From Escherichia coli (GTDB lineage: Bacteria; Pseudomonadota; Gammaproteobacteria; Enterobacterales; Enterobacteriaceae), in NCBI RefSeq assembly GCF_013122565.1, contig NZ_CP053258.1: 64,000 nucleotides of DNA. One strand, given 5' to 3'. The notes beneath the pieces are model-generated. The model made no database searches. It saw only the letters and a program-made list of their open reading frames with translations, and was not told the DNA's origin. Of this stretch, positions 1-41,152 are shown piece after piece (position 1 is the stretch's first letter; every line of letters starts with the position of its first letter). The position numbers were made by a program, and so were the translations under genes.

Positions 1-932
1 GTACCGATAATACCGTTGATTACCGAAAGGGTTTTGCTCGACATACCGGTAATGTTGGCGAAACCTAAACCCGACGCATAGAGTGCGTTATCGTTGGTGG
101 TCCAGATATTCAGCCCCAGCACCACAATCGCAGGCAGCAGCAGGCCCTGAGCAATCATCACATCAGAGATATCCGCCATCCCCAGTGCCGCCGCGCCCGC
201 TGCACCGAAAATAAACATCAACGAGTTGCCGAGGAAAAAGGCCACCATCGCCACCAGCACCGCCAGTTTGGCATTGCGACCAAACCGGACAAAGTCAGCG
301 GTGAGCGTACCCGCACTGATAAATGACCCCACAACCAGCGCCAGTGCGACATTGAAATCTAGCGGTTGTGCAGGAACGACCGCTTTTAAGGCGTCCAGAC
401 CGCCCATGCCGTTAACGGCCAGCCACACGGAATAACCACCAAGGCAGGCGATGGCCGGAACCGCAATCACCGAAAGAACGGTCAGCGCCGAAATACCAAA
501 GAACACGGTGACGGTCATCAGTAAACCGGAAACGGCAATCAGCAAATTAATATCCAGCCCAGTTGCCTTGCCCACCGGAATGGCAAACATCGCCACGCCA
601 ACGCCAAACCAGCCAACCTGGGTGCCGCCCAGCAGCAGTGAAGGCAGCCATGAGCCTTTAACACCAAACGAGAAGCGAGCAAGAAGATGGGTGGTCAGGC
701 CGGTTTTTGCGCCAATGTAACCAAGAAATGAAGTGTAAATACCGAGGAGAAGATTACCGATGAGAACTGCGAGGAAGAAATCATGATAGCTAAGACCGGT
801 TCCGAGAGTGCCGCCGGTCCACATACTGGCGGAAAAGAAGGTTAATCCCAGCATGACGAACGTCAATGCCAATACCCCTTTCCGCGCCGACTGCGGGACT
901 GGCCCCTGGCTAAAGTTGTTATCTTGCGACAC
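1..932 (-). CDS. codB: cytosine permease CodB, partial (3' end beyond window start)
   Basis: Reverse complement of 921-932 reads GTG-S-Q-D (MSQDNNFSQGP...); reverse complement of 1-80 reads ...ASGLGFANITGMSSKTLSVINGIIGT; no stop before window edge. Confidence 0.85.
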   Translation of the reverse strand, partial: MSQDNNFSQGPVPQSARKGVLALTFVMLGLTFFSASMWTGGTLGTGLSYHDFFLAVLIGNLLLGIYTSFLGYIGAKTGLTTHLLARFSFGVKGSWLPSLLLGGTQVGWFGVGVAMFAIPVGKATGLDINLLIAVSGLLMTVTVFFGISALTVLSVIAVPAIACLGGYSVWLAVNGMGGLDALKAVVPAQPLDFNVALALVVGSFISAGTLTADFVRFGRNAKLAVLVAMVAFFLGNSLMFIFGAAGAAALGMADISDVMIAQGLLLPAIVVLGLNIWTTNDNALYASGLGFANITGMSSKTLSVINGIIG

Positions 933-21381: not shown

Positions 21382-22314
21382 ATGAACTCAATTTTTACCG
21401 AAGAGAATCTGTTGGCATTTACTACCGCTGCGCGTTTTGGCAGCTTCAGTAAAGCCGCAGAAGAGTTGGGTTTAACCACTTCCGCCATTAGCTACACCAT
21501 TAAGCGTATGGAGACGGGGCTGGATGTGGTGCTGTTCACTCGCAGTACCCGCAGCATTGAGTTAACGGAGTCCGGGCGTTATTTTTTCCGCAAAGCTACC
21601 GACCTGCTGAATGATTTTTATGCCATCAAACGTAGCATAGATACTATTTCGCAGGGCATAGAAGCGCGTGTGCGCATTTGTATTAATCAGCTGCTTTATA
21701 CGCCCAAACACACCGCACGCTTATTGCAGGTACTGAAAAAGCAGTTTCCTACCTGCCAGATTACCGTCACCACCGAAGTGTATAATGGCGTCTGGGATGC
21801 GATTATTAATAATCAGGCGAATATCGCTATCGGCGCACCCGACACGCTGCTGGACGGTGGCGGTATTGATTACACTGAAATTGGCGCGATTCGCTGGGCT
21901 TTTGCTATCGCCCCGGATCACCCGTTAGCCTTTGTGCCGGAACCCATCGCCGAAAGCCAACTGCGTCTCTATCCTAATATCATGGTGGAGGACACCGCGC
22001 ATACGATTAATAAAAAAGTGGGCTGGTTGCTGCATGGGCAGGAGTCAATTCTGGTGCCAGATTTCAACACCAAATGTCAGTGCCAGATTTTAGGTGAAGG
22101 AATTGGTTTTTTGCCGGATTACATGGTCCGTGAGGCGATGGCGCAATCCCTGCTGGTTACCCGACAAATCCATAATCCACGCCAGGATTCACGCATGTTG
22201 CTGGCGACCCAGCATTCAGCAACGGGTCAGGTGACGCAGTGGATTAAAAAACAATTTGCGCCAAATGGCATATTAACGGGGATCTATCAGGATTTACTGC
22301 ATCGGGAGAATTAA
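21382..22314 (+). CDS. yahB: LysR-type transcriptional regulator YahB
   Basis: Start at MNSIFTEENLLAFTTAARFGSFSKAAEELGLTTSAISYTIKRME (310 aa); ORF track starts 20 codons upstream. Confidence 0.85.
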   Translation: MNSIFTEENLLAFTTAARFGSFSKAAEELGLTTSAISYTIKRMETGLDVVLFTRSTRSIELTESGRYFFRKATDLLNDFYAIKRSIDTISQGIEARVRICINQLLYTPKHTARLLQVLKKQFPTCQITVTTEVYNGVWDAIINNQANIAIGAPDTLLDGGGIDYTEIGAIRWAFAIAPDHPLAFVPEPIAESQLRLYPNIMVEDTAHTINKKVGWLLHGQESILVPDFNTKCQCQILGEGIGFLPDYMVREAMAQSLLVTRQIHNPRQDSRMLLATQHSATGQVTQWIKKQFAPNGILTGIYQDLLHREN

Positions 22315-22355
22315 TCGCTGCCAACCTCCCGATGCGCTGTGAATAGCGGTTTACA

Positions 22356-23444
22356 TCAACCACCTGCTTTCATTACCCATTCAGAGATAAATTTATTACC
22401 CGGAACTGGCGGGGAGTACAAATAGCCCTGCAAAAAGTGAACGCCTTTACCGATCATTAAATCCGCCTGCTCCTGGGTTTCTACCCCTTCCGCTACGATA
22501 CTCAGACCAGGCTTACGCGCCAGTTCGACAATATTGTCCACAATATGACCGGATATTTCGTCGACACTCGCCATTTGCACAAATGACTTATCGATCTTAA
22601 TAAAATCGACCGGAAACGCCTGCAGATAACGATAGGTCGCATAACCCGTACCAAAGTCATCCAGCGCAAAGGTAATGTTGTGCTGATGAAGGCTGTCAAA
22701 TATCGCTCTGGCTTCTGGCGTTACCGGAATAGGGTTACGTTCCGTTAGCTCGAGAACCAGTTTGATCTTATCGTTTCCTAATTTCTTGACCAGGTTCAGG
22801 CATTCTTTTTCAAATCCCGCGGCCAAAAAACAACCCGCCGAGACGTTGATACCAATATGGAAATTATCCGGCAGCAAATGTTTTACCGGCATCAGAATAT
22901 CCGCAGTCTGTTTCATCAGTTGGCGGGTCATTATGACAATAAGACCGGATGACTCCGCCAGAGGAATAAACTGATCCGGCGGGATGATTCCCGTTTGTGG
23001 ATGTTCCCAGCGGACAAGCACCTCACAGCCCGTCAGTACCCCAGTCTGCGCGCAGAAAACCGGTTGGATCCACGGTTTGAATTCATGGTTTTCCAACGCC
23101 AGACTGATGGCTTCAGGCGTGACGATATGGTGATAGTGATTATCATTAATATATCTGTGACTATTACTACCCGTGGCGGATATGATCTCCGGATTGTACT
23201 GAAAGAAAATATCGCGCCAGAAAGTAATATCGCTCTGAATCCCCAGTTTCTCAAAGAGCTGTTTCTTTTGATGTGAAATGGTCTTTGCACTGCGATTTCT
23301 GTACTGTGATATTTCTGTTACAGACATTCCCTGCATCAGCAGCTTGAGTAGCAGTCGTTCTTTCTCGGATACGCTACCAGGCAATGACAAATGAACCGTT
23401 GTACCGAACTCTTGCAGAAAAACACGAAAATCACATGAATTCAT
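22356..23444 (-). CDS. pdeL: c-di-GMP phosphodiesterase PdeL (YahA): LuxR-type HTH plus EAL domain
   Basis: Start at MNSCDFRVFLQEF (362 aa); N-terminal HTH (LTEISQYRNRSAKTISHQKKQLFEKLGI), C-terminal EAL domain. Confidence 0.88.
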   Translation of the reverse strand: MNSCDFRVFLQEFGTTVHLSLPGSVSEKERLLLKLLMQGMSVTEISQYRNRSAKTISHQKKQLFEKLGIQSDITFWRDIFFQYNPEIISATGSNSHRYINDNHYHHIVTPEAISLALENHEFKPWIQPVFCAQTGVLTGCEVLVRWEHPQTGIIPPDQFIPLAESSGLIVIMTRQLMKQTADILMPVKHLLPDNFHIGINVSAGCFLAAGFEKECLNLVKKLGNDKIKLVLELTERNPIPVTPEARAIFDSLHQHNITFALDDFGTGYATYRYLQAFPVDFIKIDKSFVQMASVDEISGHIVDNIVELARKPGLSIVAEGVETQEQADLMIGKGVHFLQGYLYSPPVPGNKFISEWVMKAGG

Positions 23445-24278
23445 GAACACACCTTTATCTTTTATCGCTGTTCAGTATGAGTGATTACCTGTGGATTCCT
23501 GAGCACACATAAGGGGTAACCATAAACATCAGCGATGCCATACGTATAACATCCCACATCACTATCAATAAGATTATCTTTACCTCTGATGCTCGCTCAA
23601 TAACAGTTACGCTAAATACTTTAAAAAGGTAATCACAAGTCAAACTCAGGAGATAATCACGCAAGAATGCAATATTAAAATTCAGATACTCATTTTGGGT
23701 AATAAAGAAGTAGTTGGACTATTTCAATATTTATAATTTCCCACTACGTACTGGCATCCATTCATGAGCAAAGGCGCATTATATGAATTTAACAATCCAG
23801 ATCAACTGAAAATACCTCTCCCTCATAAACACATAGCGTCAACATTCAATGACATAATGAGTAAAGATGTTGGTTATGCGTACGTATCATTACTCTATGC
23901 CTGTCCCTTAAAAACCCACCCATTAAGACTGAATCCATTCAGCAAATGATAACTAATATTATAGCAATGACAATAAAAACAATATTTAAAACATTCAATA
24001 AAATATCACACACAGATAATTAAACCTTAAATAACAAATTGTTGCGTTAATTTCAGTTGATTTACGATACACATTTCTCATGAATAATGAGTCATTTCAA
24101 ATGATCAGCAATATTTACATTAAATAAGACTAAACTTATTGAACATTCGCAACAGCCCAAATGTAGGTTTTGGCTTGTAATAGTTCTTTTCTTTTTTATT
24201 ATCTGTTGTCTGGTAATCATCAATAGATACTAAGTGCTTAATCGTATAGATATAACGTATCAAGAGGTAGGAGAAACA

Positions 24279-24306
24279 GCGCCATATGCAGACATGGCGC
24301 GGTTTT
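24279..24306 (-). terminator. putative terminator downstream of betT
   Basis: Stem gcgccat/atggcgc (7 bp, 8-nt loop); minus-strand reading followed by TGTTTCT. Confidence 0.45.
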
Positions 24307-24318
24307 ATGCAATAACAA

Positions 24319-26352
24319 TCACGCGTCCGGGAACATCACGCTATGGCCCGGCGCTTCACGATGGAGATGGATAAAGTTAAGGTGCCGCTCGTACTGGTCG
24401 AGAATATCGGTGATCACCTGCTCTTTGCTGTAGTCCATCAGGTCGTTGCCCTGGCTGCCTTCTAACAGGAAGGTTTCCAGCCGGTAGTAAGTCGATTTAC
24501 CGCTACGTGCGCGGTAGGTAAAGCCCGGCACCGAATATTGCTGTGGCCAAATCTGATAGACAAAGTTTTGCTCTTCGCCCATATGCACCAACAAATCCAG
24601 ATGCCCCAACTGTTGTCCCTCTTCCGGCGGTAGGCTTTTTAGCTCCACATACGCGCCGCGCAACCGCAGCTCTTGCGCCACTTCTTCCATTGCCGGGTAA
24701 CAGACCGTCTCCATCATCTGTTTAGTGTAACGCGTGCCCGGATAATTCATCAGGCGCGAGAGACGTTTTTTCCAACTCAGGCGATCCTGAAGCCCCAGCG
24801 GTCGCGGCGCGGTATCGCGGTTGGCACTTTCACGGCGGTAATCTTCTACTTTCAGAGATTTATACAACCCCGCCATCACGAAGAAGATCACAAAGCTGAA
24901 CGGCAGCCCCATAATCACCGTGGTGTTTTGCAGCGCGGATATCCCGTTGGTCATCAGCATGCCGAGCGTCAGCAGGCCAATCGCCACCGACCAGAAGACG
25001 CGCAGCCAGCCGGGGGCGTCGCTGTTGATATCTTTAAGCTGCGAGGTGAAATTCCCCAGCACCAGCGCCCCGGAGTCCGCCGAGGTCACATAAAACAGCA
25101 GGCCAGTAATGGTGGCGACGGAGGCGCTAAAGGTAAACGCCGGATACTGCGCCAGCAGGCTGTAGAAGCCGCGCTCCGGATGGACCATCGCTTCCTCTGC
25201 AAATGCCGCGCCGCCGTGGATGATTTCATACAGCGCGCTATTGCCGAACACCGAGAGCCATAACAGCGTGAAGGTAAACGGAATAATCAACGTGCCCAGC
25301 ACGAACTGGCGAATGGTACGCCCACGCGAGATACGCGCCAGGAACAAGCCGACAAACGGCGACCATGCCACCCACCATGCCCAGAAGAAGAGCGTCCAGT
25401 TATTCATCCACTCAACTGGACGGTCGAAGGCAAAACTGTTGAGCGTCATGCCCATAAAGCGATTCACATAGTCGCCAACATTCAGCACCAGTGCATTAAG
25501 CAGGAACGAAGTGTCGCCCATAAACAACACGAACAGGATCAATCCCAGCGCCAGCGCGACATTAAGCTCCGATAACACGCGAATGCCCTTATCGACACCG
25601 GATGTCACCGAGATAGTGGCGATGATCACCGACAAGGCGATCAGTGCCGCTTTCGCCGCCATTGAATCAGGAATATCAAACAGTACGCTCAAGCCATAGT
25701 TAAGCTGCACCACACCGATACCGAGCGTAGTGGCAATACCGAAGATGGTGCCGATCACCGCTGCAATATCCACTGAGTGACCTATCGGCCCGTTAATCCG
25801 TTTACCGAAGATCGGGTACAGCGCCGAGCGGATGGTGAGCGGCAAATTATAACGATAGCTAAAGTATCCAAGCGCCATGCCCATCAGCGCATACATCGAC
25901 CAGCCGGTTAAGCCGTAGTGAAACAGCGTCCAGACCATCGCCTGACGCGCGGCCTCAATCGTCTGTCCCGCGCCTTCCGGCGGCTGCATATACTGCGTTA
26001 CCGGTTCGGCTACGGAAAAGAACATCAGATCGATACCGATCCCGGCAGCAAACAGCATCGCCGCCCAACTCAGCAGACTGAATTCCGGTTTGGATTGTTC
26101 TGGCCCGAGCTTCACCGAACCAAAACGCGAACAAGCGATACAGACCACAAAGACAATATAGAGCGTTGCCGCCAGCAGATAGTACCAACCGAAGGTTTTA
26201 GAGACCCAGTCCAGCGTGCGGCCAATCCACAGGGCCGAGAAGTCGCGAAACAGGATCGTTGTCAGGGAAAACAACAAAATCAGTCCGGCGGAAGTGTAAA
26301 ACACCACCGGATTGATTTTGTCCTTTTCCCTGCTGTGTGAAAGGTCTGTCAT
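24319..26352 (-). CDS. betT: choline transporter BetT (BCCT family)
   Basis: 677-aa ORF MTDLSHSREKDKINPVVFYTSAGLILLF... Confidence 0.93.
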   Translation of the reverse strand: MTDLSHSREKDKINPVVFYTSAGLILLFSLTTILFRDFSALWIGRTLDWVSKTFGWYYLLAATLYIVFVVCIACSRFGSVKLGPEQSKPEFSLLSWAAMLFAAGIGIDLMFFSVAEPVTQYMQPPEGAGQTIEAARQAMVWTLFHYGLTGWSMYALMGMALGYFSYRYNLPLTIRSALYPIFGKRINGPIGHSVDIAAVIGTIFGIATTLGIGVVQLNYGLSVLFDIPDSMAAKAALIALSVIIATISVTSGVDKGIRVLSELNVALALGLILFVLFMGDTSFLLNALVLNVGDYVNRFMGMTLNSFAFDRPVEWMNNWTLFFWAWWVAWSPFVGLFLARISRGRTIRQFVLGTLIIPFTFTLLWLSVFGNSALYEIIHGGAAFAEEAMVHPERGFYSLLAQYPAFTFSASVATITGLLFYVTSADSGALVLGNFTSQLKDINSDAPGWLRVFWSVAIGLLTLGMLMTNGISALQNTTVIMGLPFSFVIFFVMAGLYKSLKVEDYRRESANRDTAPRPLGLQDRLSWKKRLSRLMNYPGTRYTKQMMETVCYPAMEEVAQELRLRGAYVELKSLPPEEGQQLGHLDLLVHMGEEQNFVYQIWPQQYSVPGFTYRARSGKSTYYRLETFLLEGSQGNDLMDYSKEQVITDILDQYERHLNFIHLHREAPGHSVMFPDA

Positions 26353-28567: not shown

Positions 28568-30238
28568 TTGCAATTTGACTACATCATTATTGGTGCCGGC
28601 TCAGCCGGCAACGTTCTCGCTACCCGTCTGACTGAAGATCCGAATACCTCCGTGCTGCTGCTTGAAGCGGGCGGCCCGGACTATCGCTTTGACTTCCGCA
28701 CCCAGATGCCCGCTGCCCTGGCATTCCCGCTACAGGGTAAACGCTACAACTGGGCCTATGAAACGGAACCTGAACCGTTTATGAATAACCGCCGCATGGA
28801 GTGCGGACGCGGTAAAGGTCTGGGCGGATCGTCGCTGATCAACGGCATGTGCTACATCCGTGGCAATGCGCTGGATCTCGATAACTGGGCGCAAGAACCC
28901 GGTCTGGAGAACTGGAGCTACCTCGACTGCCTGCCCTACTACCGCAAGGCCGAGACGCGCGATATTGGTGAAAATGACTACCACGGCGGCGACGGCCCGG
29001 TGAGCGTCACCACCTCCAAACCCGGCGTCAATCCGTTGTTTGAAGCGATGATTGAAGCGGGCGTGCAGGCGGGCTACCCGCGCACGGACGATCTCAACGG
29101 TTATCAGCAGGAAGGTTTTGGTCCGATGGATCGCACCGTCACGCCGCAGGGCCGTCGCGCCAGTACCGCGCGCGGTTATCTCGATCAGGCCAAATCGCGC
29201 CCTAACCTGACCATTCGTACTCACGCTATGACCGATCACATCATTTTTGACGGCAAACGCGCGGTGGGCGTCGAGTGGCAGGAAGGCGACAGCACCATTC
29301 CAACCCGCGCAACGGCCAACAAAGAAGTGTTGTTATGTGCAGGCGCGATTGCCTCACCGCAGATCCTGCAACGCTCCGGCGTCGGCAACGCTGAACTGCT
29401 GGCGGAGTTTGATATTCCGCTGGTGCATGATTTACCCGGCGTCGGCGAAAATCTTCAGGATCATCTGGAGATGTATCTGCAATATGAGTGCAAAGAACCG
29501 GTTTCCCTCTACCCTGCCCTGCAGTGGTGGAATCAGCCGAAAATCGGTGCGGAGTGGCTGTTTGGCGGCACCGGCGTTGGTGCCAGCAACCACTTTGAGG
29601 CGGGCGGATTTATCCGCAGCCGCGATGAATTTGCGTGGCCGAATATTCAGTACCATTTCCTGCCAGTGGCGATTAACTATAACGGCTCGAATGCAGTGAA
29701 AGAGCACGGCTTCCAGTGCCACGTCGGATCGATGCGCTCGCCAAGCCGTGGGCATGTGCGGATTAAATCCCGCGACCCGCACCAGCATCCGGCAATTCTG
29801 TTTAACTACATGTCGCACGAACAGGACTGGCAGGAATTCCGCGATGCAATTCGCATCACCCGCGAGATCATGCATCAACCCGCGCTGGATCAGTATCGTG
29901 GCCGCGAAATCAGCCCCGGTGTCGAATGCCAGACGGATGAGCAGCTCGATGAGTTCGTGCGTAATCACGCCGAAACCGCCTTCCATCCGTGCGGTACCTG
30001 CAAAATGGGCTACGACGAGATGTCCGTGGTTGACGGCGAAGGCCGCGTACACGGGCTGGAAGGCCTGCGCGTGGTGGATGCGTCAATTATGCCGCAGATT
30101 ATCACCGGCAATTTGAACGCCACGACGATTATGATTGGCGAGAAAATAGCGGATATGATTCGTGGACAGGAAGCGCTGCCGAGGAGCACGGCGGGATATT
30201 TTGTGGCAAATGGGATGCCGGTGAGAGCGAAAAAATGA
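28568..30238 (+). CDS. betA: choline dehydrogenase (GMC oxidoreductase)
   Basis: TTG start giving [21 protein letters not shown] (556 aa); FAD-binding GxGxxG. Confidence 0.9.
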
Positions 30239-30966
30239 GTCGTGATTTGAACTGACGCAAGTCCCTGCAAAGTTAAGCGTTACCGTCTTGAGATAGGTAT
30301 ACAAAGTCTCATACTTCTCTCTCAACAATCCGAAATAATCGGGTACCCGCGTTTACCGGATCAGGAAGGCATATACTATCCGGTCTGCGCTTTCTACTGC
30401 AATATTTCTAAAAGTTGCGCAACACGCGGCAGGATAGTGCTTTTACGCAAAGAAGCACTTTCTGCCGCCCGGGAAATGCGCGCGTGCTATACGCCGTTTT
30501 ACCTGAGATATGACAGAGTAAAGCCCTGTTAAAATACTCTTGTCGTCTCAGGTAAAATAAGTGATTAATATCAATCATATATTTTTACAGCAAGACAACC
30601 ACGTACAAACTCAGGATTAATATGTTTTACCGATTCCCCAACATAACCCAAATCAAGCGAACTAATTTGTGCCATTTCTTTCTCTGTCAATGAGAAATCG
30701 ATTTTTGATGGGCATCTGCAATACTCTGAAGCAGACTATAAGGAAAATTCTACTGCCCCCCTCCATTCCGCATGAACAATGAGTCTACGTTAAAACGTAA
30801 CCTCAAATTAGTATGTGGATTTTGATATCACTTATGCAAAAAATTCATTAATAATGTAGGACTGAAACCTCTCTATTTTCGGGGACAACGAAGCAGACGC
30901 TACCAGTGCTTTTGCCTTCGGCCTTGCTGTTTTTGATACACTTAGGGCCCAGGGCATAACGAAAAT

Positions 30967-31857
30967 GTGCGATATGACGAAGAATTAATGGAGAATGTGA
31001 TGATCAGGCAGAAGATTCTACAGCAGCTCCTGGAGTGGATTGAGTGCAATCTCGAGCACCCTATTTCAATTGAAGATATCGCACAGAAATCTGGCTACAG
31101 CAGACGCAACATCCAGCTTCTGTTCCGAAATTTCATGCATGTGCCTTTGGGAGAATACATTCGCAAACGAAGGCTTTGTCGTGCCGCCATTCTTGTCCGG
31201 CTCACCGCAAAATCTATGCTTGATATTGCACTCTTTTTGCATTTTGATTCACAGCAGTCATTCAGCCGCGAATTTAAAAAGTTATTCGGCTGCTCTCCCC
31301 GTGAATACCGCCACCGTGATTATTGGGATCTCGCAAATATCTTCCCTTCTTTTTTAATACGTCAACAGCAAAAGACGGAGTGTAGATTAGTCAACTTTCC
31401 TGAGACACTTATTTTTGGCAATTCATTTAAATATGACATTGAAGTGTCGAATAAATCACCGGATGAAGAAGTCAAACTGCGACGTCATCATTTAGCCAGA
31501 TGTATGAACAATTTTAAGACGGATATCTATTTCGTCTCCACGTTTGAACCGTCAACAAAATCGGTCGATTTACTCACAGTTGAAACTTTTGCCGGTACGG
31601 TATGTAAACAAACCGATTCAGAGATGCCGAAAGAGTGGACAATTAACCGAGGACTGTATGCATCTTTCCGCTATGAAGGTGAGTGGAAGCACTACCCTGA
31701 ATGGGCGCGAAACCTCTATCTGATGGAATTACCCGCCAGGAGGTTAGCCAGAGTGAACGGCAGTGATATTGAGCGGTTTTATTACAATGAAGATTTCGTA
31801 GAAAAGGATAGCAATGATGTTGTTTGCGAAATATTTATTCCTGTTCGTCCGGTTTAG
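30967..31857 (+). CDS. AraC-family regulator with GyrI-like effector domain (ykgA-like)
   Basis: 296-aa ORF; N-terminal AraC HTH (ISIEDIAQKSGYSRRNIQLLFRN...FDSQQSFSREFKKLFGCSPREYR); true start may be an internal Met. Confidence 0.7.
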   Translation: MRYDEELMENVMIRQKILQQLLEWIECNLEHPISIEDIAQKSGYSRRNIQLLFRNFMHVPLGEYIRKRRLCRAAILVRLTAKSMLDIALFLHFDSQQSFSREFKKLFGCSPREYRHRDYWDLANIFPSFLIRQQQKTECRLVNFPETLIFGNSFKYDIEVSNKSPDEEVKLRRHHLARCMNNFKTDIYFVSTFEPSTKSVDLLTVETFAGTVCKQTDSEMPKEWTINRGLYASFRYEGEWKHYPEWARNLYLMELPARRLARVNGSDIERFYYNEDFVEKDSNDVVCEIFIPVRPV

Positions 31858-31911
31858 CTGTCGCTATATCTAAATGAATTTATAACGAGACTACTGTCAG
31901 GCAATTCAATA

Positions 31912-31944
31912 AATAATGGCGTTGAAGATGTCAACGCCATTATT
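31912..31944. terminator. bidirectional rho-independent terminator between AraC-family gene and eaeH
   Basis: Perfect 14-bp stem aataatggcgttga/tcaacgccattatt, 5-nt loop, T-rich flanks on both strands. Confidence 0.7.
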
Positions 31945-31979
31945 GTTTATTAGAATGCTACTTTCATATCCTTAAAATA

Positions 31980-34900
31980 TTATTTAGCCGCTTCTTCTCC
32001 CTTTGCCGTATCTTCTGCCACGGCGGTAATGGTCACCGTCACTGGCTTCATTTCGTACCCGCCATAGGTCAGGGCGTTAAATGTGAACGTATAGACACCA
32101 GGCTTGCTGGTACTAAATGTACGCGTGATTTTTCCGCTCACGAAATGGTCATTTTTCGACGGCAGGAACTGATAATCCTTCTCCGTCACCCCTTCCGGCG
32201 TCTGAATGTCGACCCACATATTCCCCCCAACGGGGTTGTTTGCCGACATCAGTGTCACCTCCAGCTTCGCAGTCGATTTCCCATCCGCCACCAGAGATTG
32301 CACATCAGATGATGCGGTGAGTACCGCATTTTTATCATCCGCGACGAATTTAGATTCGGCAGTTTTCGTCGATACCTGACCGTTGTTCTGACTCACTTGC
32401 GCCGTGAGTGTATATGTCGCCGCAACAGTAGTGGTAGCGGTGAAAATAGCCTGCCCTTGCTCATTCGTTGTCGCAGTGCCATTCGGTTCCAGGTTTAACG
32501 AAGCCGGGCTGGCAGTCAGCGTCACTTCGCTATCTTTCAACAGGTTGTTATTGGCATCAGTCACCGTAACTTTATACGTTTGTTTGGCTTTGCCGTCCGC
32601 CAGCGCATAGTTGCCAATCACCTCAATACCGGAGACGGTTGCGGTAGCCTTATCGGCTACAAACGTTATAGTCTGCGTATTCGAAGGCTGGCTATTCCCT
32701 GCCGATGCCGTGATCTCATACGTTCCGGCAGTCACTGAAACCACCTGCAACTCTGCTTTCCCCTCATCGTTGGCTTTCACCCAGACATTATCGCCTGTAA
32801 GCGGCTTGACACCCCGGGGCAGATTAAAGGTCACCAGGCTCCCTGGAACAGGGTTACCATTTTTATCCTCAACGGTCGCCGTCAGCGTAAAGGCATCTTT
32901 GCCGTTTGCCACTTTTTGAACGGCGGTGTCTACCTGCAGGTTTGCCTGACCGGTGCTGGCATCCGCGTTGAATTTCACCGTGACCGTCTTCTGAGCACCA
33001 TTCACCGAAGCGGAAATATTGTGTTCTCCCGCAACCGTTGACATAAGCTCAATGTCCACTTTCCCTGCCGCATTGGTTGTTACTGTATTCCCCGTCTTGC
33101 TGGTCACACCCTGCGGTAAAGTCAGCGTAACTTCTTGCCCCTGCAACGGGTTACCATAGCTGTCCACGACGGTCAGGGTTATCTGGTTAGCAGACTGTCC
33201 ATTAGCCAGTTGGTTATTAACCTTCACTGTCATATCACGAATATCAGCCTGAGAAGCGTCCCCTGCAACGTTCAGCACCAGTGGCTGAGCAACAGCATTT
33301 TGGCCGTTCACTCGCGGCATCACAGACAACTGACCCGCAGCCGATCCCAGCGTTAAGGTCGCCACGTAGACCCCATTACCTTTCTCTGTCCAGTTTCCTG
33401 CTGAAGGACGCTCACTCCCCGTGCTGGCGGCACCGCTAAACACTGGTGCATCTGGCTTCAGCCCGGTGACCGGGTTCCCGTACGCATCCTTCACGGTGAA
33501 GGTGAGTTCCGTCGTCGTTTTGACGGTCGGAGCCTTATTGTCCGCAACAAGCGTAGAGTTCGCTGATGACATCTCTCCGGCGATGACCGTCAACTGCGCG
33601 GCTTCGGTGGCTGCTGGCTGGCCGTTGAAGAGCGGCATGACACGAAGCTCGCCCGTCTTTCCGCCTGTAGTCAACGTAGCAACATAGGAACCGTCACCTT
33701 TTTCGGTCCAACTGGAAACGGTCGCCCCTTCAGAGGCGGTCCCCGTCAAACTTGCCGACAACGCAAGACCACTGATAGCGTTGCCATGCGCATCTTTCGC
33801 CACCAGCATCACGGTTGTGCTTTCGCCGGCTTTTACGTGATCTTCTGCGACAGAGACTTTCGACTGGTTTGAAGATAACGCATCAGCCACCACGGTTACT
33901 TTTGCCGCATTTGCTGCCGCATCCTGTCCATTTAGCTTCGGCATAACTTCTAATTCACCCGCCGTAGAGCCGAGAGTAATCTGCGCAGTCCACGTCCCAT
34001 CACCATTATTTGTCCAGCCCGATGCCGTAGAACCTACAGCAGCGGCACCCGCTAATGACGGCGCTTCCGGCGTGAGGCTGGTCACAGGGTTGTCATAGGC
34101 ATCTTTTACCGTCCAGATTGCCGTAACTGTACCCCCAACCACCGGTTTATCAGGATTCAGGGTGATGGACGAATGTGCTGCATCAAGCGGCCCGGCAACA
34201 AACTTCAGCGTTTGTTGTAATGTGCCCAGCTGATACTGCTCGCTGAAGGCACGCACAACAACATTTCCTGCGCGAGTCGAAGAAACCGTAGCGCTGTAAA
34301 CCCCTGGTTTTATTTCCGAAATGGCACCAACGGTAACACCATTAATGTCTTGCGGAACAAGTCGCAGGCGGCTGGCTTCTCCCGTCACCGGATTACCCTC
34401 GGAGTCCACCGCAGTCAACGTCAACGTATAGGCTTGCTGACCATCAGCAACCACGTCACCTGACGGCTCGTTAGCGCTCAGGGTGGAGTTTGCCACATCC
34501 ATCATCGTGGCCCGCAGTTCTGCAGTGACGGTTTTGCTCATGCCATCAACGCTAACAGTAATCGTTGCCTCACCTGACTGCGTTCCGGTAGTAAAGACAG
34601 ACTGATACACCCCTGCTTCAGTTTCGGTGAACTCACCCAGTGTTGGCTTTGCCTGTGATTTAGTGGACTTCAGGGAACGAGTCACAATATTTCCAGCCGG
34701 TTTGAAGGCTAGTTCAGTCTTGATCTGATCTTTCATGCCCGTGACTGGCTGGCCCTCGGCGTCGCGCAGAGACAGCACCAGCGGTCTTTGCTCATTACCG
34801 TTAGCAAGCATTTGAATACGGCTCTGACCGTCAAGCGTTAACGCCGTGCGATCGGCACTCATACCTGCTCCGGTAATGACCACCTCTGTCTGCACGCGTT

Positions 34901-36233
34901 TTGAGGCATTGCCTTTGTTATCGTAGGCAACCGCAGAAATCGCATAATAATTGTCTTTGCCTGCCTGGTAAGCCGGGAGCGTCACTTGCCACTGATTACC
35001 CTGCCCCGTAATTTTTCCGCCTGCGGCCAGCAAAGACGGCGCTTCCCATTGAACATTTTTCAGACCGTGAGTTGCTTTACTCACCACAAGCCCCAGGGAA
35101 ACCGTCTGCCCGCCCTTGCCTTCAATACGTTCAGGCAGAGCAATACGGATCACTTCAGATTTGCGGTACTCAAGAACGATGTTGTTATTACGCTCAACCA
35201 GGTCATAGCGGCTGCCTGCCAGCATTCGACGCTCGCGAATGCTGTCTGTATCGAGTTGTTTTTGCAGAGGTTCGCCAATCCGATAATTAACTTCCAGGCC
35301 AAAGCGAGTGTCATTCTCACCACTCTTGCCCTGCTTATGCCCGGCACTCAGGGTCAGAAGAGGCACTGGCGTATAGGTCACCTCGGCAGAAATAGCATGC
35401 GGGTCTTTCTGGCGTTTATCTTTACCAAACAGCCCGACTTCATCGCCATAATACTGTTCATACATCAGGCTTGCGCCAAGCTGCGGCCAGGCGGGTAAAT
35501 AGCCCTCAGCACGAATATCCCAGCCATTCGCCGGGCGTTCCTGATAATCCTCAACATCCGGCGATTTTTTCCAGCCAGAAGCCCGGATATAACCATTGGC
35601 GCTCAGTTTCAAATAATCACGCCAGTATTCCGCACCAACACCAATGCGGGTATGACTACGGGATAAATCATGGTCGATAAAGGTGTTCACCCCCGCCATC
35701 CAGTCATTTCCTGAAAAATGACGCCAGCCAAAACCAATATTTGACTGAGTGCGATCATCTGTACGATGTATTGCCCCCTGAGTGAACAACATATTTGTCG
35801 GCGTATCATAAATAGGATAAAGCATTTCCAGAGAAGAATCCTTCAGCGAGAAATCTTTATCGACATTGAGTTTGACGCGCGCAGTACCGTATTTCCCGAG
35901 CCACTCCTGTATTTCCTGGTTAGCTTTAGCGGTGGCCATTCCGGTAATAAAGTTACGTGTCGCATCGCTATCTGGCTGACTGCTTAAAAAATTCCCAGCA
36001 TTTGCGGCAAACGACGCGACATTTTTCTCCACATTATTATCAGCAGCTACTGTGGTATTTTCCATGCTCAACCGTGGCTGAACCGCATGCTGCGCGCGTG
36101 CCGCCATTACTGGGGTAAAGGTGACCGCGAGTGGAAAAAGAACCTGAACAGAGATATTTGCCCACGCCACACAGCGGGCCAGAACTGAATAACGAAATCG
36201 TGGTTGTTTATGACCTGTTTTATAACGCGACAT
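31980..36233 (-). CDS. eaeH: intimin/invasin-family outer-membrane adhesin, full length (EaeH/FdeC)
   Basis: 1417-aa ORF; N-terminal beta-barrel region followed by many tandem Ig-like repeats; truncated pseudogene in K-12 as I recall. Confidence 0.85.
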   Translation of the reverse strand: MSRYKTGHKQPRFRYSVLARCVAWANISVQVLFPLAVTFTPVMAARAQHAVQPRLSMENTTVAADNNVEKNVASFAANAGNFLSSQPDSDATRNFITGMATAKANQEIQEWLGKYGTARVKLNVDKDFSLKDSSLEMLYPIYDTPTNMLFTQGAIHRTDDRTQSNIGFGWRHFSGNDWMAGVNTFIDHDLSRSHTRIGVGAEYWRDYLKLSANGYIRASGWKKSPDVEDYQERPANGWDIRAEGYLPAWPQLGASLMYEQYYGDEVGLFGKDKRQKDPHAISAEVTYTPVPLLTLSAGHKQGKSGENDTRFGLEVNYRIGEPLQKQLDTDSIRERRMLAGSRYDLVERNNNIVLEYRKSEVIRIALPERIEGKGGQTVSLGLVVSKATHGLKNVQWEAPSLLAAGGKITGQGNQWQVTLPAYQAGKDNYYAISAVAYDNKGNASKRVQTEVVITGAGMSADRTALTLDGQSRIQMLANGNEQRPLVLSLRDAEGQPVTGMKDQIKTELAFKPAGNIVTRSLKSTKSQAKPTLGEFTETEAGVYQSVFTTGTQSGEATITVSVDGMSKTVTAELRATMMDVANSTLSANEPSGDVVADGQQAYTLTLTAVDSEGNPVTGEASRLRLVPQDINGVTVGAISEIKPGVYSATVSSTRAGNVVVRAFSEQYQLGTLQQTLKFVAGPLDAAHSSITLNPDKPVVGGTVTAIWTVKDAYDNPVTSLTPEAPSLAGAAAVGSTASGWTNNGDGTWTAQITLGSTAGELEVMPKLNGQDAAANAAKVTVVADALSSNQSKVSVAEDHVKAGESTTVMLVAKDAHGNAISGLALSASLTGTASEGATVSSWTEKGDGSYVATLTTGGKTGELRVMPLFNGQPAATEAAQLTVIAGEMSSANSTLVADNKAPTVKTTTELTFTVKDAYGNPVTGLKPDAPVFSGAASTGSERPSAGNWTEKGNGVYVATLTLGSAAGQLSVMPRVNGQNAVAQPLVLNVAGDASQADIRDMTVKVNNQLANGQSANQITLTVVDSYGNPLQGQEVTLTLPQGVTSKTGNTVTTNAAGKVDIELMSTVAGEHNISASVNGAQKTVTVKFNADASTGQANLQVDTAVQKVANGKDAFTLTATVEDKNGNPVPGSLVTFNLPRGVKPLTGDNVWVKANDEGKAELQVVSVTAGTYEITASAGNSQPSNTQTITFVADKATATVSGIEVIGNYALADGKAKQTYKVTVTDANNNLLKDSEVTLTASPASLNLEPNGTATTNEQGQAIFTATTTVAATYTLTAQVSQNNGQVSTKTAESKFVADDKNAVLTASSDVQSLVADGKSTAKLEVTLMSANNPVGGNMWVDIQTPEGVTEKDYQFLPSKNDHFVSGKITRTFSTSKPGVYTFTFNALTYGGYEMKPVTVTITAVAEDTAKGEEAAK

Positions 36234-37128
36234 TGAGATAATTTCCTGATGAACGAATTAACGAACATATGCAGACACAAATAATGGCGTCTGCTTGTCA
36301 GAAAAACCGGGAATTTCCCGGTTTCCTTTTCCGCAGAAAAGGAAATACCTTTATGTAAGAAAGTGCACCGCCACCTAATATATTCAGTGTCTGTAGCCAC
36401 TCATCAGGTGGTTGGGCGCGGGATTATATTTTTATTTATGGGTGAAAATTTAGCTTTTTGTGCAAGTCATTAAAGTATGATTGTCACACTATATTCTCCG
36501 TTTAAATACAGTGAATATATTTTTATTTAAAGTGAATAATGATGTTCTGCTTTTAGTGACCACGATTAGAATTACGCCTAAAGAGGTATATGTTCATAAT
36601 AAGCCAATATTTTTTAAGGGTATTTATTTTCTTTCATCGGGCTATAAAATCCCGAAATATCGGATTTGCACAGCACCGATCAACAGTGCTTAAGCAGGCG
36701 GGTGCTGTTTACGACCAGGATAGTTAAGATAATATCCGGGAAAAGTTGGACATCAGCCCTGTAGAACCTGAATAAGTTCGCCTGACTTTACATAATCATG
36801 AACCGCGTTTTCGGAGCCACAGGCGGTACCAAAGTAAAAGGCTGGTGATGGGTACCTTTAGCCGAATCAGGTAGAAGTCATGAAATTCCCCCCTTAATCC
36901 ACAGCGTGTTCCTGAACTAACCATTCCGGATAGACTATTGGATCAAATTCAGGCATCGAAAGGAACAGGCTGTTTCCCGTTAAGGGATTAATTATCTATT
37001 TTCCTTAATAGATAACTGATGTAATACCTCTATTCAAATTTGTGATACATGTCAAAAAATTGGTTGACCAAACTCGTTATTTATATAAGGACACTTACGA
37101 AGTGCATTTTTAAAGCGAGGAAGTACCA

Positions 37129-37230
37129 ATGAAAGAGAATAAAGTACAGCAAATCAGTCATAAACTGATCAATATCGTTGTTTTTGTTGCAATAGTAGAA
37201 TACGCCTATTTATTTCTCCATTTCTATTAA
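37129..37230 (+). CDS. ykgR: small membrane protein YkgR (33 aa)
   Basis: ATG preceded by GAGGAAG; MKENKVQQISHKLINIVVFVAIVEYAYLFLHFY; not in the ORF track (too short). Confidence 0.6.
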   Translation: MKENKVQQISHKLINIVVFVAIVEYAYLFLHFY

Positions 37231-37290
37231 TAACGGCAATAAACTGTTCACTTTAGTGATATTTAAAATATGCATCCTTTTTCTGCTTTT

Positions 37291-37317
37291 CAAGCTGTTC
37301 AAGCTGTTCAAGCTGTT
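37291..37317. repeat. perfect 9-bp tandem repeat x3 (caagctgtt)
   Basis: caagctgtt caagctgtt caagctgtt followed by partial cag; intergenic. Confidence 0.9.
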
Positions 37318-37657
37318 CAGCGGCGTAAGAGAAAGTATTGAGTATGAATTCGACGATTTAACCATATCTGTTTGATTGGTAATCATCCGTGATTAATGCT
37401 GGTCTATTGATTACGCCAGCATTAACCGCTTAGGGATGTATTCTTCCTGTTCATATACAGCCCTCGAAAAAGAGAGCAAATAAAACTGTGTCCAATATTA
37501 CTCTACCACTCCAGACCGAAGTATCGGTAGAATTAGCAGAACGGCTGGTACAGTAGATTGGGATAGCGTCATTTGTCAGGCATTCCATTGCCATAATAAT
37601 AATTATGAATCAATAGACGTGCTTCTTGATCATGTCTTAAAAATTATACCACGAGCC

Positions 37658-37888
37658 TTATGAAGCATCATTTTTACTGACTGGTGTTAACTTTGCTATC
37701 ATATAAACTCTGTTCTTAAAAAACGCGCCCAGAATTTTATATGATTTTCCTTGTTTTTCTGCCTGTAAAGAAATTTCTTTTTCAGTGCTGTCAATGGTTG
37801 AACCGACGGCAGTAATCGTTTTGGCGACGCTACTGAAAGATAATAAAGACAGTGTCATCACAACAATTAAAGAACAGATAGTATTCAT
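37658..37888 (-). CDS. small secreted protein, DUF1471-like
   Basis: Start at MNTICSLIVVMTLSLLSFSSVA (76 aa); mature part resembles the YahO/BhsA family (TIDSTEKEISLQAEKQGKSYKILG). Confidence 0.5.
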   Translation of the reverse strand: MNTICSLIVVMTLSLLSFSSVAKTITAVGSTIDSTEKEISLQAEKQGKSYKILGAFFKNRVYMIAKLTPVSKNDAS

Positions 37889-38103
37889 GCTAATTCTCCT
37901 GACAATTGAGAGGATGAGTTTTATATACATAGATATTAAACATGAGTCATATTTACTCCAAGAGAAAATACCCCTTCTGTAATTAAACCTTCATCTCCTT
38001 CGGAATGAGTAATGCATAATATAATGCATCTTGCTATGCAAAACAGTGGATATAAATTTTCCTCCCGACCTATTTAATAAAACGTGAATGTAAAAGTTAT
38101 TCT

Positions 38104-38841
38104 TCAGTTTGCAGATGCAGTGGGTCTGATGGTAATTTCGGTTGTATCAACGCTTTCGGGCGATTCAATAATATGCCTTACAGCACGGGCAATATCCGCA
38201 GGTTGAAGTGCAACAGAACGGTAGACATCCATTGCCTTCATGGTTTCCACATGGGTAATGGTTGAAGCCAGTTCACTTTCGACAACGCCAGGATTTACGC
38301 ATGTCACACGGATTTTCGAGCTTTCCTGCCGTAAGCCATCAGAAATAGCCCTTACTGCAAATTTTGATGCGCAATAGACTGCGCCTGTGGGCACAACAGA
38401 AAGGGCACCAATAGAACCAAGATTGATTATCTGACCGGAACCCTGTGCTTCCATCACCGGAAGTACAGCGCCAATTCCCCAAAGTACACCTTTGATATTC
38501 ACGTCTATAGTGAGCTCCCATTCATCCTGTTTTCCTGCTGCAAGCGGTGAAAGCGGCATAACGCCCGCATTATTGATAAGAACATCAACTCGCCCCCAGC
38601 TATCCAGCGCTGCTTGCACGAAATCGGCCATGGACTGTCGGTTTGTGACATCCAACTCCCGCGCTTTAGCAATTCCTCCTGCGCGGCAGATTTCGGTTGC
38701 AATGGCTTCGATACGCTCAACTCTGCGTGCGCCCAGTAAAACCTTTGCACCTGTCGTTCCCAGCGCTCTGGCAATACCTTCCCCAATACCACTTGATGCG
38801 CCGGTAATTAATATGACCTTATCCATTACGTTCTCCTTCAA
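38104..38841 (-). CDS. short-chain dehydrogenase/reductase (SDR)
   Basis: 245-aa ORF; Rossmann motif TGASSGIG, NNAG motif, catalytic YxxxK (YCASK); true start may be MDKVILITG. Confidence 0.85.
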   Translation of the reverse strand: MKENVMDKVILITGASSGIGEGIARALGTTGAKVLLGARRVERIEAIATEICRAGGIAKARELDVTNRQSMADFVQAALDSWGRVDVLINNAGVMPLSPLAAGKQDEWELTIDVNIKGVLWGIGAVLPVMEAQGSGQIINLGSIGALSVVPTGAVYCASKFAVRAISDGLRQESSKIRVTCVNPGVVESELASTITHVETMKAMDVYRSVALQPADIARAVRHIIESPESVDTTEITIRPTASAN

Positions 38842-38924
38842 ATGTGTTCGGAGAGAGAATAGAACTTTATGATTGGTTCCAGTATCCTGCTTTCAATGTA
38901 CTCAGTGGTTAGCGGCATTAAACA

Positions 38925-39824
38925 ATGAAAATCGATCTTAATCTTTTACCCATTTTTATCGCGGTAGCAGAAGAGAGTAATTTTAGTAAAGCCGCCGCAC
39001 GACTGGGCGTTACCCGTTCAGCGGTCAGTCAGGGAATAAGACGCCTTGAAGATGCATTCGGGACAATGCTTGTAATGCGGACCACGCGCTCAGTTAATTT
39101 GACGGAAGCGGGAGAACGGCTGCATAAATCGTTGTCATTACCTTTATCCGGTATTGAGGCAACGTTCGAAGAGATGGTTTCTGACCATGTGCCACGCGGA
39201 CTTCTCAGAATCGCGGTGACGTCGATAGCAGAAGAATTTCTTTCAGGTCCGCTAATCGCTTCGTTTGCAGCTGCCAATCCAGCCGTTACGCTTGATATTG
39301 TTGTAACGGATGAGGAATTCGATATCGTGGCCGCAGGTTACGATGCTGGCGTAAGGCTCGGAGAGGTCATTGAAAAAGACATGATTGCTGTGCCCATTAC
39401 CGGCAGGCAGCGTGAAATGGTCGTTGCCTCTCCCTCCTATCTCGCAGCCAACAGCACTCCTGTTCATCCGCGTGAACTTGTGAATCATAAGTGTATCGGC
39501 TGGCGTCAGTCCCCGGAGGTTGCGCCTTATCGCTGGCCATTTGAAGAAAACGGGAGAGCTTTCGACCTTGCGATTGAACCGCAGATTACGACTAATGATC
39601 TGCGTCTGATGTTGCGGCTGGCTCTTGCCGGTGGAGGAATAACAATTGCCACTCAGGAAACTTTCAGGCCGTATATTGAAAGCGGTAAGCTTGTATCGCT
39701 GCTTGATGACTTTCTTCCACAATTTCCGGGCTTCTATCTGTATTTCCCACAGCGTCGCAATATTGCACCAAAGCTCCGCGCCCTGATTGACCACGTCAAA
39801 GAATGGCGGCAGCAATTGACTTAA
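38925..39824 (+). CDS. LysR-type transcriptional regulator
   Basis: 299 aa; N-terminal HTH (FSKAAARLGVTRSAVSQGIRRLE); divergent from the SDR gene. Confidence 0.85.
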   Translation: MKIDLNLLPIFIAVAEESNFSKAAARLGVTRSAVSQGIRRLEDAFGTMLVMRTTRSVNLTEAGERLHKSLSLPLSGIEATFEEMVSDHVPRGLLRIAVTSIAEEFLSGPLIASFAAANPAVTLDIVVTDEEFDIVAAGYDAGVRLGEVIEKDMIAVPITGRQREMVVASPSYLAANSTPVHPRELVNHKCIGWRQSPEVAPYRWPFEENGRAFDLAIEPQITTNDLRLMLRLALAGGGITIATQETFRPYIESGKLVSLLDDFLPQFPGFYLYFPQRRNIAPKLRALIDHVKEWRQQLT

Positions 39825-40389
39825 ATGTCTGCACCTGCACGGCCTGATGTCAGAACAATATTTTGATGAATTGCCTACACCAGCTAGCCGCAGCACATTC
39901 TTGCATACGACATGTCTGCGGTTTACTTTTCACGCTCAAACCTTATGGTAAAGCACAATAATGATCCCCAGGGCTATATAAATGTTTTGTAATTAGCTCT
40001 TAAGACGAACTTTTCAGACTAACTTCTTTATTCATCCATAATGAAGACTGTATTAGGAAGTTCTCTAAAAACATGAATAACCACTGTCTTACAATGAATT
40101 TAGTTTACAGAACATTCTTATTGAGAAAAAACAACACTGTACACACCCAATAATATAGAAATGTAAATTTAAGTTTATTAATCTTTTGAATTATAATCAT
40201 AACTTTCTGTTAACCATTAGAATATCAATAGATTATAATCACTGAACACACATTTTTATAATTGCTATTCCCACACTCAAAATGCGCATCCCAATATCTT
40301 ATTTGACACTTTGTTGTTTGCTACTAGAGTTAATTGGGTGCTGACAAGGCACATGTTATTTACAAATTGGAAATCAGAGGAGAAATGAT

Positions 40390-40572
40390 ATGACCGAACA
40401 TCGTGGCGGTGCAGGTAATTTCGCTGAAGATCGACAAAAAGCTTCTGACGCAGGTCGTAAAGGTGGCCAACAAAGTGGTGGTAATTTTAAAAACGATCCA
40501 CAAAGAGCATCAGAAGCAGGGAAAAAAGGTGGTCAGAATAGCCATGGCGGCGGTCGTAAATCTGACTCTTAA
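40390..40572 (+). CDS. KGG-repeat stress protein (YciG/YmdF family)
   Basis: 60 aa with repeated GG[NQ]..KKGGQ motifs. Confidence 0.8.
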   Translation: MTEHRGGAGNFAEDRQKASDAGRKGGQQSGGNFKNDPQRASEAGKKGGQNSHGGGRKSDS

Positions 40573-40645
40573 TTTTTCATCTCCCTAAATTCGTGAATAA
40601 CTGCAGCTAACTGCGAGCCTACGGGCTCGCAGGGACAACTCTGGA

Positions 40646-41152
40646 GTGATTATGCAAATTAAATCTGTTGAAGATATCTTCATCCATTTATTATCTGACA
40701 CATATAGTGCTGAGAAACAACTAACCAAGGCACTATCTAAACTTACTCGCTCCGCATATAGTGATAAATTAACCGCTGCTTTTCAGTCACATCTTGATGA
40801 GACACATGGTCAAATTGAACGCATCGACCAGGTTGTTGATTCTGAAGATGGTATTAAACTAAAAAGAATTAAGTGCGCCGCAATGGAAGGCCTTATTGAA
40901 GAGGCGAATGAGGTAATTGAAAGCACTGACAAAAATGAAATACGTGATGCTGCGTTGATTGCAGCAGCACAAAAAGTAGAACACTATGAAATTGCCAGTT
41001 ATGGCACCCTGGTAACACTTGCTGAGCAATTAGGATTTAAAAAAGCGGCTCAACTCCTGAAAGAAACTCTGGAAGAGGAAAAAGCTACTGATGTCAAATT
41101 AACAGACCTGGCATTTAATAATGTTAATAAAAAAGCTCAGGATAACTCCTGA
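40646..41152 (+). CDS. DUF892 ferritin-like protein (YciE/YciF family)
   Basis: 168 aa ...VEDIFIHLLSDTYSAEKQLTKAL...KVEHYEIASYGTL... Confidence 0.8.
   Translation: MIMQIKSVEDIFIHLLSDTYSAEKQLTKALSKLTRSAYSDKLTAAFQSHLDETHGQIERIDQVVDSEDGIKLKRIKCAAMEGLIEEANEVIESTDKNEIRDAALIAAAQKVEHYEIASYGTLVTLAEQLGFKKAAQLLKETLEEEKATDVKLTDLAFNNVNKKAQDNS

Follow-up and report, generated by a model that had tools for sequence, protein, structure and literature searches.

The control region of the c-di-GMP phosphodiesterase gene pdeL (yahA) in Escherichia coli K-12 is reportedly the subject of papers by Reinders et al. (J Bacteriol 2016; bioRxiv 2021), Yilmaz and Schnetz, and Shimada et al. In K-12, ChIP, SELEX and genetic data show binding of H-NS, FIS and IHF together with silencing by H-NS. 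A hns mutant derepresses pdeL, while transcription of pdeL is lowered by mutation of cra or pdeL or by scrambling of the boxes that they recognise (bioRxiv 10.1101/2021.10.01.462762). According to the same preprint, the distal box is contested between H-NS and PdeL, and binding of Cra permits adjacent binding of PdeL, both proteins recruiting RNA polymerase. Furthermore, a PhoB site located just within yahA has been flagged as H-NS-bound (PMC10294691).

As judged from the literature, this region has three properties in common with H-NS-silenced promoters of the bgl, proU and LEE type, namely long AT-rich stretches that flank the promoter, a specific activator that binds DNA in competition with H-NS (here PdeL with Cra), and an RNA polymerase that is present but not productive. 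Unlike in those systems, the anti-silencer of pdeL is the product of the silenced gene itself, an enzyme that changes its oligomeric state in response to c-di-GMP.

The locus compared here is the spacer between betT and pdeL in a stretch of 64,000 nucleotides of E. coli DNA, which we call the window. The two flanking genes are co-oriented on the minus strand (Table 1). An earlier note, made from the letters of the window, had pointed to about 870 nt between pdeL and betT at 23445-24318; these coordinates are exact and the spacer measures 874 nt. We found that it is ~98% identical to the betT-pdeL spacer of K-12, with no indels and a length of 874 bp in both, and BL21, which has the same spacer as K-12, matches the window at 98.3% over 1151 nt. 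In the K-12 record, betT (b0314), yahV (b4730, 24 aa) and pdeL (b0315) follow one another on a single strand, and the annotation of BL21 likewise gives betT, yahV and pdeL. Using megablast, the segment was found in 5222 of the 5426 complete E. coli genomes; query coverage reaches at least 80% in 3600 of the 5426, where the annotation always reads betT, then YahV or a hypothetical protein, then pdeL.

[quoted passage not shown] The genome around the spacer, unlike that of K-12, belongs to a less common lineage, with positions 30000-41000 of the window covered to at least 80% in only 2 of the 5426 complete genomes. Every site mapped in K-12 is present in the spacer, which, judged by its sequence, corresponds to a well-studied and already known K-12 regulatory region.

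The earlier note had called the interval unusually long and strongly AT-rich, and both descriptions hold. With 868 nt free of any ORF of at least 90 aa, the spacer is the second longest of the internal stretches of the 64-kb window, in which the median gap without such an ORF is 146 nt. Its GC content is 0.332, where the whole window has 0.505, and in no stretch of this size is it lower, with a local minimum of 0.27 (200-nt windows); an equally low GC content occurs in just 0.13% of the same-size windows, each of which overlaps the spacer region. The A-tracts, which the earlier note had also listed, do not set the region apart: the spacer contains 13 runs of at least four A or T, same-composition shuffles contain 14.8 +/- 3.4, as many runs are seen in 23% of same-size windows, and no helical phasing of AA/TT at 10-11 bp was found in the spacer. 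Likewise, the high-affinity motif of H-NS (TCGATAAATT-like) is not enriched in the spacer, with 3 occurrences at up to 2 mismatches versus 2.2 +/- 1.5 in shuffles. Since neither the motifs nor the A-tracts rise above what composition gives, the case that the sequence makes for H-NS is that of AT content alone. The sense (minus) strand is T-rich across the spacer, and a repeat search of the spacer returned nothing besides the known palindromes and the terminator.

To place the regulatory elements, we took the site positions from the EMSA oligonucleotides in Table S4 of the preprint by Reinders et al. (bioRxiv 10.1101/2021.10.01.462762) and mapped them onto the window (Table 1). The binding, start-site and expression data all come from K-12 and are carried over to the window by sequence identity. 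For the phylogenetic footprint, we aligned five alleles of the spacer, which include two divergent ones found by a PdeL search of species-representative genomes, L009 from Escherichia sp. E1V33 and L010 from an E. coli representative. Both have a PdeL protein that is 97-99% identical, and the spacer upstream of pdeL follows ykgG, not betT.

Table 1. Features of the betT-pdeL spacer and its flanking genes, in order along the minus strand (window coordinates; positions with a sign are relative to the main start site).
Feature	Position	Strand	Description
betT	24319-26352	minus	stop codon ends at 24319
betT intrinsic terminator	24274-24305	minus	hairpin GCGCCATGTCTGCATATGGCGC, weak T-tail TGTTTCTCC on the betT strand
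CIB fragment	24087-24153	minus	EMSA oligos, 0 and 1 mismatch
CIB palindrome AATAAG-N6-CTTATT	24123-24140		identical to K-12
yahV	23939-24013	minus	GTG start, 24 codons plus TGA; product (M)CDILLNVLNIVFIVIAIILVIIC
61-aa ORF	23764-23949	plus	antisense to pdeL promoter and Cra box; judged not to be a gene
Cra box GCTGAATGGATTCAG	23929-23943		palindrome, identical to the K-12 CB oligo
CDB region TCTTAATGGGTGGG	23915-23928		adjoins the Cra box; one difference from K-12
Conserved island CATCTTTACTCATTATGTCATTGAATGTTGACGC	23838-23870	minus	~-98 to -66; stands out against L009 and L010
pdeL sigma-70 core promoter TTGATC-16-TATAAT	23778-23805	minus	predicted by promoter scan, 10/12 matches
pdeL 5' leader	23445-23772	minus	328 nt, from the equivalent of the K-12 main start site
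pdeL	22356-23444	minus	ATG at 23444

At the upstream end of the spacer, the betT terminator has a bidirectional shape, with an A-run upstream and a T-run downstream of the hairpin, and is kept in all E. coli alleles that have betT, O157:H7 included. The CIB is centred near -360 from the start site, ~130 bp beyond this terminator; an H-NS-motif-like sequence, TCAATAAGTT at 24133-24142, overlaps its left half as reported for K-12, and both divergent alleles retain its half-sites. The Cra box, centred at ~-163.5, is invariant in 5/5 spacer alleles. The oligonucleotide that carries the Cra box with the CDB maps to 23944-23915 with at most one mismatch, and the variant base that the window has in the CDB is common to other natural isolates. 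The K-12 fragment used for recruitment of RNA polymerase maps from the Cra box to 23766, again with at most one mismatch, and this fragment contains the predicted core promoter, the only strong promoter-like site on its strand. The same hexamers, together with an H-NS mark, are given for the betT>yahA spacer in a genomic SELEX study of RpoD (PMC3946193).

Cappable-seq in K-12 places sense-strand starts at U00096.2 positions 331267 (the strongest), 331353 and 331503, and none between 330673, in the 3' end of betT, and 331267 (PMC4782308). The three starts convert to 23772, 23686 and 23536 in the window, where their context is identical. The earlier note had proposed start-site mapping as a check, and in the K-12 data the main start of pdeL falls at the equivalent of 23772, 6 nt after the TATAAT.

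Taken together, and by analogy with K-12, the interval is very probably the transcriptional control region of pdeL, silenced by H-NS and activated by Cra and PdeL, with the end of betT running into it. Along the minus strand, such a region would be laid out as betT terminator, CIB, yahV, Cra box with CDB, promoter, leader and pdeL ATG, the Cra box and CDB lying ~160 bp upstream of a sigma-70 promoter that would start the 328-nt leader. As carried over from K-12, H-NS with FIS and IHF would coat the AT-rich spacer and leave pdeL nearly off, and Cra on its box would let PdeL bind beside it, so that the two would jointly bring in RNA polymerase. The K-12 authors propose that at low c-di-GMP tetramers of PdeL would bridge the CDB and the CIB, which are ~196 bp apart, and displace H-NS; this bridging and displacement would make the expression of pdeL switch-like, bistable and hysteretic. 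The earlier note had seen in the AT-rich interval the mark of nucleoid-protein-silenced regulatory DNA and had suggested H-NS ChIP data for the homologous K-12 region as a check. Binding of H-NS, FIS and IHF is reported for that region, and the derepression of the K-12 orthologue in a hns mutant points to the same kind of silencing in the window.

Some points count against this explanation. A Cra box at ~-163 lies a long way upstream for a direct activator, matches to the H-NS motif and A-tracts stay at the level set by composition, and the window has a SNP at 23920 in the CDB. Active Cra was perhaps missing from the cultures used for Cappable-seq, and a Cra-dependent start nearer to the Cra box may be possible.

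We also examined whether the spacer encodes other products. Its longest ORF, of 61 aa and divergent from pdeL, begins with an ATG that has no Shine-Dalgarno-like sequence upstream, and that it is a real protein-coding gene has in our view next to no chance of being true. The ORF consists of non-repetitive sequence, is unbroken both in the window and in K-12, and now and then appears as a hypothetical protein in E. coli assemblies. However, we found no match for it in Pfam or NCBIfam, and a search for relatives among 5.8 billion clusters returned only sporadic E. coli calls of this kind and none outside E. coli. Its start is lost and its frame is interrupted by stops and frameshifts in both divergent alleles, and in L004 the stop codon is lost. 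Furthermore, the parts of it that are conserved coincide with the pdeL promoter and the Cra box on the opposite strand, the conserved N-terminal codons being the complement of the TATAAT promoter of pdeL. The earlier note had dismissed this ORF as not convincing for want of a ribosome-binding site, a judgement that the lack of families and the broken frame bear out.

The suggestion that the interval might hide a small RNA fared less well. Such an RNA, free-standing or derived from the 3' end of betT, could be defined by a weak K-12 start in the betT 3' end (U00096.2 330673, position 24366 of the window), which lies ~90 nt before the betT terminator and with it could delimit a short transcript; the secondary starts in the leader, at 23686 and 23536, can also be cited in its favour. 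However, no Rfam match was found in the spacer in a search of 22000-26000 at E<=10, in which the sole match, outside the spacer, was a chance 17-bit viral pseudoknot, and a scan of the spacer for tRNA and tmRNA was equally negative. The betT terminator is the only terminator-like site in the spacer, and the 328-nt leader folds no better than its shuffles (z = -0.21), with no covariation in the consensus fold of the five alleles (covariation term +0.36). In K-12, the Term-seq data list no 3' end from 329541 to 344013, the supplements of SMRT-Cappable-seq have no entry for the betT, yahV or pdeL genes, and no known sRNA is annotated in the spacer. Collectively, these results make a small regulatory RNA very unlikely. 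A riboswitch or otherwise structured leader was separately considered and rejected on the z score of the fold and the lack of covariation over the five alleles.

The case of yahV is different in kind. The earlier note had found no convincing ORF in the interval, which does not stand, as yahV is annotated there and its product has been seen in K-12 by immunoblot after chromosomal 3' SPA tagging (VanOrsdel et al. 2018, PMC6001520). The earlier note had named a translated gene in the interval as evidence against its reading; one is formally present, and the regulatory reading is not undone by it. Relative to the start site, the gene spans -241 to -167, with a PdeL box on either side of it and its stop codon (23939-23941) within the Cra box, and its hydrophobic product is identical to K-12 YahV in 23 of 24 residues. 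YahV has a single predicted transmembrane helix and is found mostly in phylogroups A, B1 and C, where it is co-localised with betABIT and pdeL, and a role in osmotic stress or motility has been proposed from this co-occurrence analysis (PMC9976479).

Accordingly, one could suppose that the product of yahV functions as a small membrane protein, for instance in motility or under osmotic stress, and that the spacer is long partly to house it. Besides the tagged product and the helix, this view is favoured by an ORF that has stayed open in the window, K-12, BL21 and a B2-like allele despite 9 nucleotide changes, and by an exact look-up that found the K-12 variant, and only this variant, on at least 1000 contigs. 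We nevertheless consider it unlikely. Within the five-allele alignment, yahV is intact in three alleles (window, K-12 and B2-like) and broken by stops and a frameshift in the two divergent ones, which keep PdeL 97-99% identical, and four unannotated ORFs of the spacer are kept as well as yahV. The differences between yahV haplotypes are ~8 nonsynonymous to 1 synonymous, in a small sample, and no purifying selection on yahV was found among relatives in the five alleles and these haplotypes. Because the sense strand is T-rich, short hydrophobic peptides are expected by default. Furthermore, K-12 Cappable-seq lists no sense-strand start between the betT 3' end and yahV, YahV has no match in Pfam or NCBIfam, and no phenotype has been reported.

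YahV can be compared with tagged E. coli small proteins of the YkgR type, encoded in intergenic regions (YkgR is encoded upstream of fdeC in the same window). YahV shares with them a length of 24-33 codons, a single predicted transmembrane helix, a location in a long AT-rich spacer and detection by SPA tag. Unlike them, it has no family model, its relatives are confined to some E. coli phylogroups, it has no phenotype and it overlaps a transcription-factor site. The case for yahV thus rests on the K-12 immunoblot, while the comparative data, as aligned here, show no constraint at the protein level; they suggest that yahV is young and evolves without detectable constraint of this kind.

With no start listed from the betT 3' end to yahV and a weak T-tail on the betT terminator, yahV may be transcribed by read-through from betT. 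The betT gene is induced by osmotic stress and choline. One may then picture yahV as a recently born micro-gene whose expression, by read-through from betT, is part of the pdeL switch and couples osmotic or choline signals to c-di-GMP. We regard this as quite improbable; if true, the silencing would be loosened by transcription and translation of the stretch from CIB to CDB, which H-NS coats.

An origin of the promoter module from ehaA is much better supported than this participation of yahV in the switch. In O157:H7, the gene order is betT, a 573-bp spacer, ehaA, 141 bp and pdeL, and spacers of this type occur in 1398 complete genomes versus 3600 of the K-12 type. Using a profile of the five K-12-type alleles, we found that the betT-ehaA spacer of O157:H7 shares with the window not only the betT terminator but also the same 17-nt Cra box, flanks included (GCTGAATGGATTCAGTC), and a homologous core promoter (TATTTTGAGTTGATTTG...CATATAATGCGC in O157:H7, TATTTTCAGTTGATCTG...CATATAATGCGCC in the window). 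The distance from the Cra box to the -10 element is 157 bp in O157:H7 and 160 bp in the window, a PdeL-box-like palindrome (AATAAGACGATTCTTAT) follows just after the Cra box of O157:H7, and the spacer is likewise AT-rich, with a GC content of 0.32. Unlike in the window, the O157:H7 promoter faces the 3984-bp autotransporter gene ehaA, which codes for an adhesin, the spacer of 573 bp is without yahV, the leader has no detectable similarity to that of the K-12 type, and the PdeL allele is only 93% identical.

Other Escherichia show related arrangements. In E. albertii, the same Cra box and promoter are followed by scattered ehaA fragments and then by pdeL, and pdeL comes after an EhaA-like autotransporter in E. 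whittamii and on a related contig, where similarity to the window starts only 14 nt before the pdeL ATG. The simplest reading would be that betT-ehaA-pdeL is the older arrangement and that ehaA was lost in K-12-type strains. We therefore hold it to be rather more probable than its opposite that the Cra box and promoter module is a former ehaA promoter, captured by pdeL after the loss of ehaA. In the searchable literature, whose scope did not take in the primary pdeL papers, we found no statement of such an ancestry.

Beyond the Cra box and promoter, the spacer has no DNA similarity to ehaA. The K-12-type leader of ~300 nt has no detectable relative in ehaA or in the O157:H7 leader, and searches of plasmids and phages for its relatives gave either no hit or hits to F-prime plasmids and mislabelled chromosomes alone. 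That the spacer is a decayed remnant of the ehaA coding sequence was considered and rejected, as no tblastn hit below E = 3 was obtained with the N-terminal part of EhaA or with the C-termini of related autotransporters.

The footprint bears on how much of the region is functional. Over most of the spacer, identity in the two divergent alleles reaches only 45-78%, below the 83-89% of the third codon positions of pdeL, and all 11 spacer ORFs of at least 20 aa, yahV included, are broken in both. The core promoter segment at 23766-23812, however, is 92-94% conserved and the leader is 90-94% identical over its last ~95 nt (23445-23539) in these alleles. Such a pattern could mean that only short islands are functional, namely the boxes for Cra and PdeL, the core promoter and this final part of the leader, that the remainder including yahV is neutrally drifting filler which the loss of ehaA left behind, and that H-NS coats this filler merely through its AT-richness. 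The nearly exclusively nonsynonymous differences between yahV haplotypes, the tolerance of IS1 insertions within the spacer and the existence of related arrangements with an intact or decayed ehaA are in line with it.

On the other side, the 435 bp adjoining pdeL are 96-100% identical in the K-12, B and B2-like lineages versus 91-94% at the third positions of pdeL, which suggests constraint or a recent sweep beyond the islands, and the YahV protein is made in K-12. Extended AT-rich tracts are usually required for silencing by H-NS, and the apparent filler may serve as a platform for its nucleation and spreading. We therefore see a restriction of function to these islands as possible, with our own inclination somewhat against it; it would refine, and not replace, the explanation of the interval as the H-NS-silenced, Cra- and PdeL-activated control region of pdeL.

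Collectively, our results suggest that the ancestry of the promoter in ehaA and a yahV without constraint are minor additions to the known K-12 picture. The example of yahV calls for care with small proteins that are listed as "validated" but lie in AT-rich DNA. The proposed ancestry leads to the prediction that ehaA of EHEC would be under the control of Cra, PdeL and H-NS and would be co-transcribed with pdeL.

In O157:H7, the autotransporter gene ehaA is likewise preceded by the Cra box and the core promoter known from pdeL, at about equal spacing, and in E. albertii the same core promoter also precedes a decayed ehaA. Among 5426 complete E. coli genomes, the K-12-type arrangement, with betT next to pdeL, is found in 3600 genomes versus 1398 for the betT-ehaA-pdeL type. 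From these sequence comparisons, the former ehaA promoter seems to now drive pdeL in K-12-type strains. For the roughly 300 nt leader that follows in K-12-type strains, no similarity could be detected to ehaA, to the leaders of O157:H7 or E. albertii, to plasmids or to phages. Its conservation among the K-12, B and B2-like lineages is 96-99%, higher than the 91-94% for the third codon positions of pdeL.

Features in and around the betT-pdeL spacer and their counterparts at other loci
Feature	Location	Strand	Remark
Cra box and pdeL core promoter region	window 23772-23943		
O157:H7 counterparts	L053 (betT-ehaA spacer) 727-741 and about 860-895		
E. albertii counterpart of promoter	L011 99-164		
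33-nt island CATCTTTACTCATTATGTCATTGAATGTTGACGC	window 23838-23870	minus	kept in otherwise divergent alleles
pdeL upstream region, divergent alleles	L009 2498-3500; L010 2372-3500		
Weak K-12 Cappable-seq start site, U00096.2 330673	window 24366	minus	within betT 3′ end
K-12-type pdeL leader, roughly 300 nt	window 23445-23765	minus	
IS1 copies in or beside spacer	L007 2284-2981; L008 1816-2513 and 3996-4693		

Two Escherichia genomes (L009, Escherichia sp. E1V33, and L010, an E. coli representative) have no bet genes here, and the pdeL spacer directly follows ykgG. Over most of its length this spacer is 45-78% identical to that of the window, while PdeL is 97-99% identical. The spacer has diverged more than the synonymous sites of pdeL, which suggests either that the allele is old or that a recombination boundary lies close to the start of pdeL. 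The island kept in these alleles lies at about -98 to -66 relative to the pdeL start site; no assignment of it to a factor was found in the accessible literature, and the FIS and IHF sites are reportedly located between the two PdeL boxes, that is, further upstream.

Among the K-12 Cappable-seq start sites listed, the closest one upstream of yahV on the sense strand is that within the 3′ end of betT, with the betT terminator about 90 nt downstream. Transcription from this site could yield a short betT-3′-derived transcript or, via read-through of the weak betT terminator, the yahV mRNA.

A second AT-rich spacer pairing a micro-gene with an adjacent adhesin gene is found at 36401-37657, the longest ORF-free stretch in the window (1257 bp, GC 0.37), located upstream of fdeC, which encodes an inverse autotransporter; the spacer's counterpart in a related genome contains ykgR, an annotated small membrane protein. 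The surrounding 11 kb (30000-41000), whose genes include those for an SDR oxidoreductase, a LysR regulator, and con-10 and YciE/YciF-like stress proteins, is covered to at least 80% in only 2 of the 5426 complete genomes, at 95.6% identity; the window thus either belongs to a rarely seen lineage or has an uncommon island there.

Finally, some E. coli genomes (L007, L008) carry IS1 within or adjoining the betT-pdeL spacer, with one copy linking the spacer to the ecp operon and another truncating pdeL. These insertions fit with AT-rich, H-NS-bound DNA being a hotspot of insertion and rearrangement.
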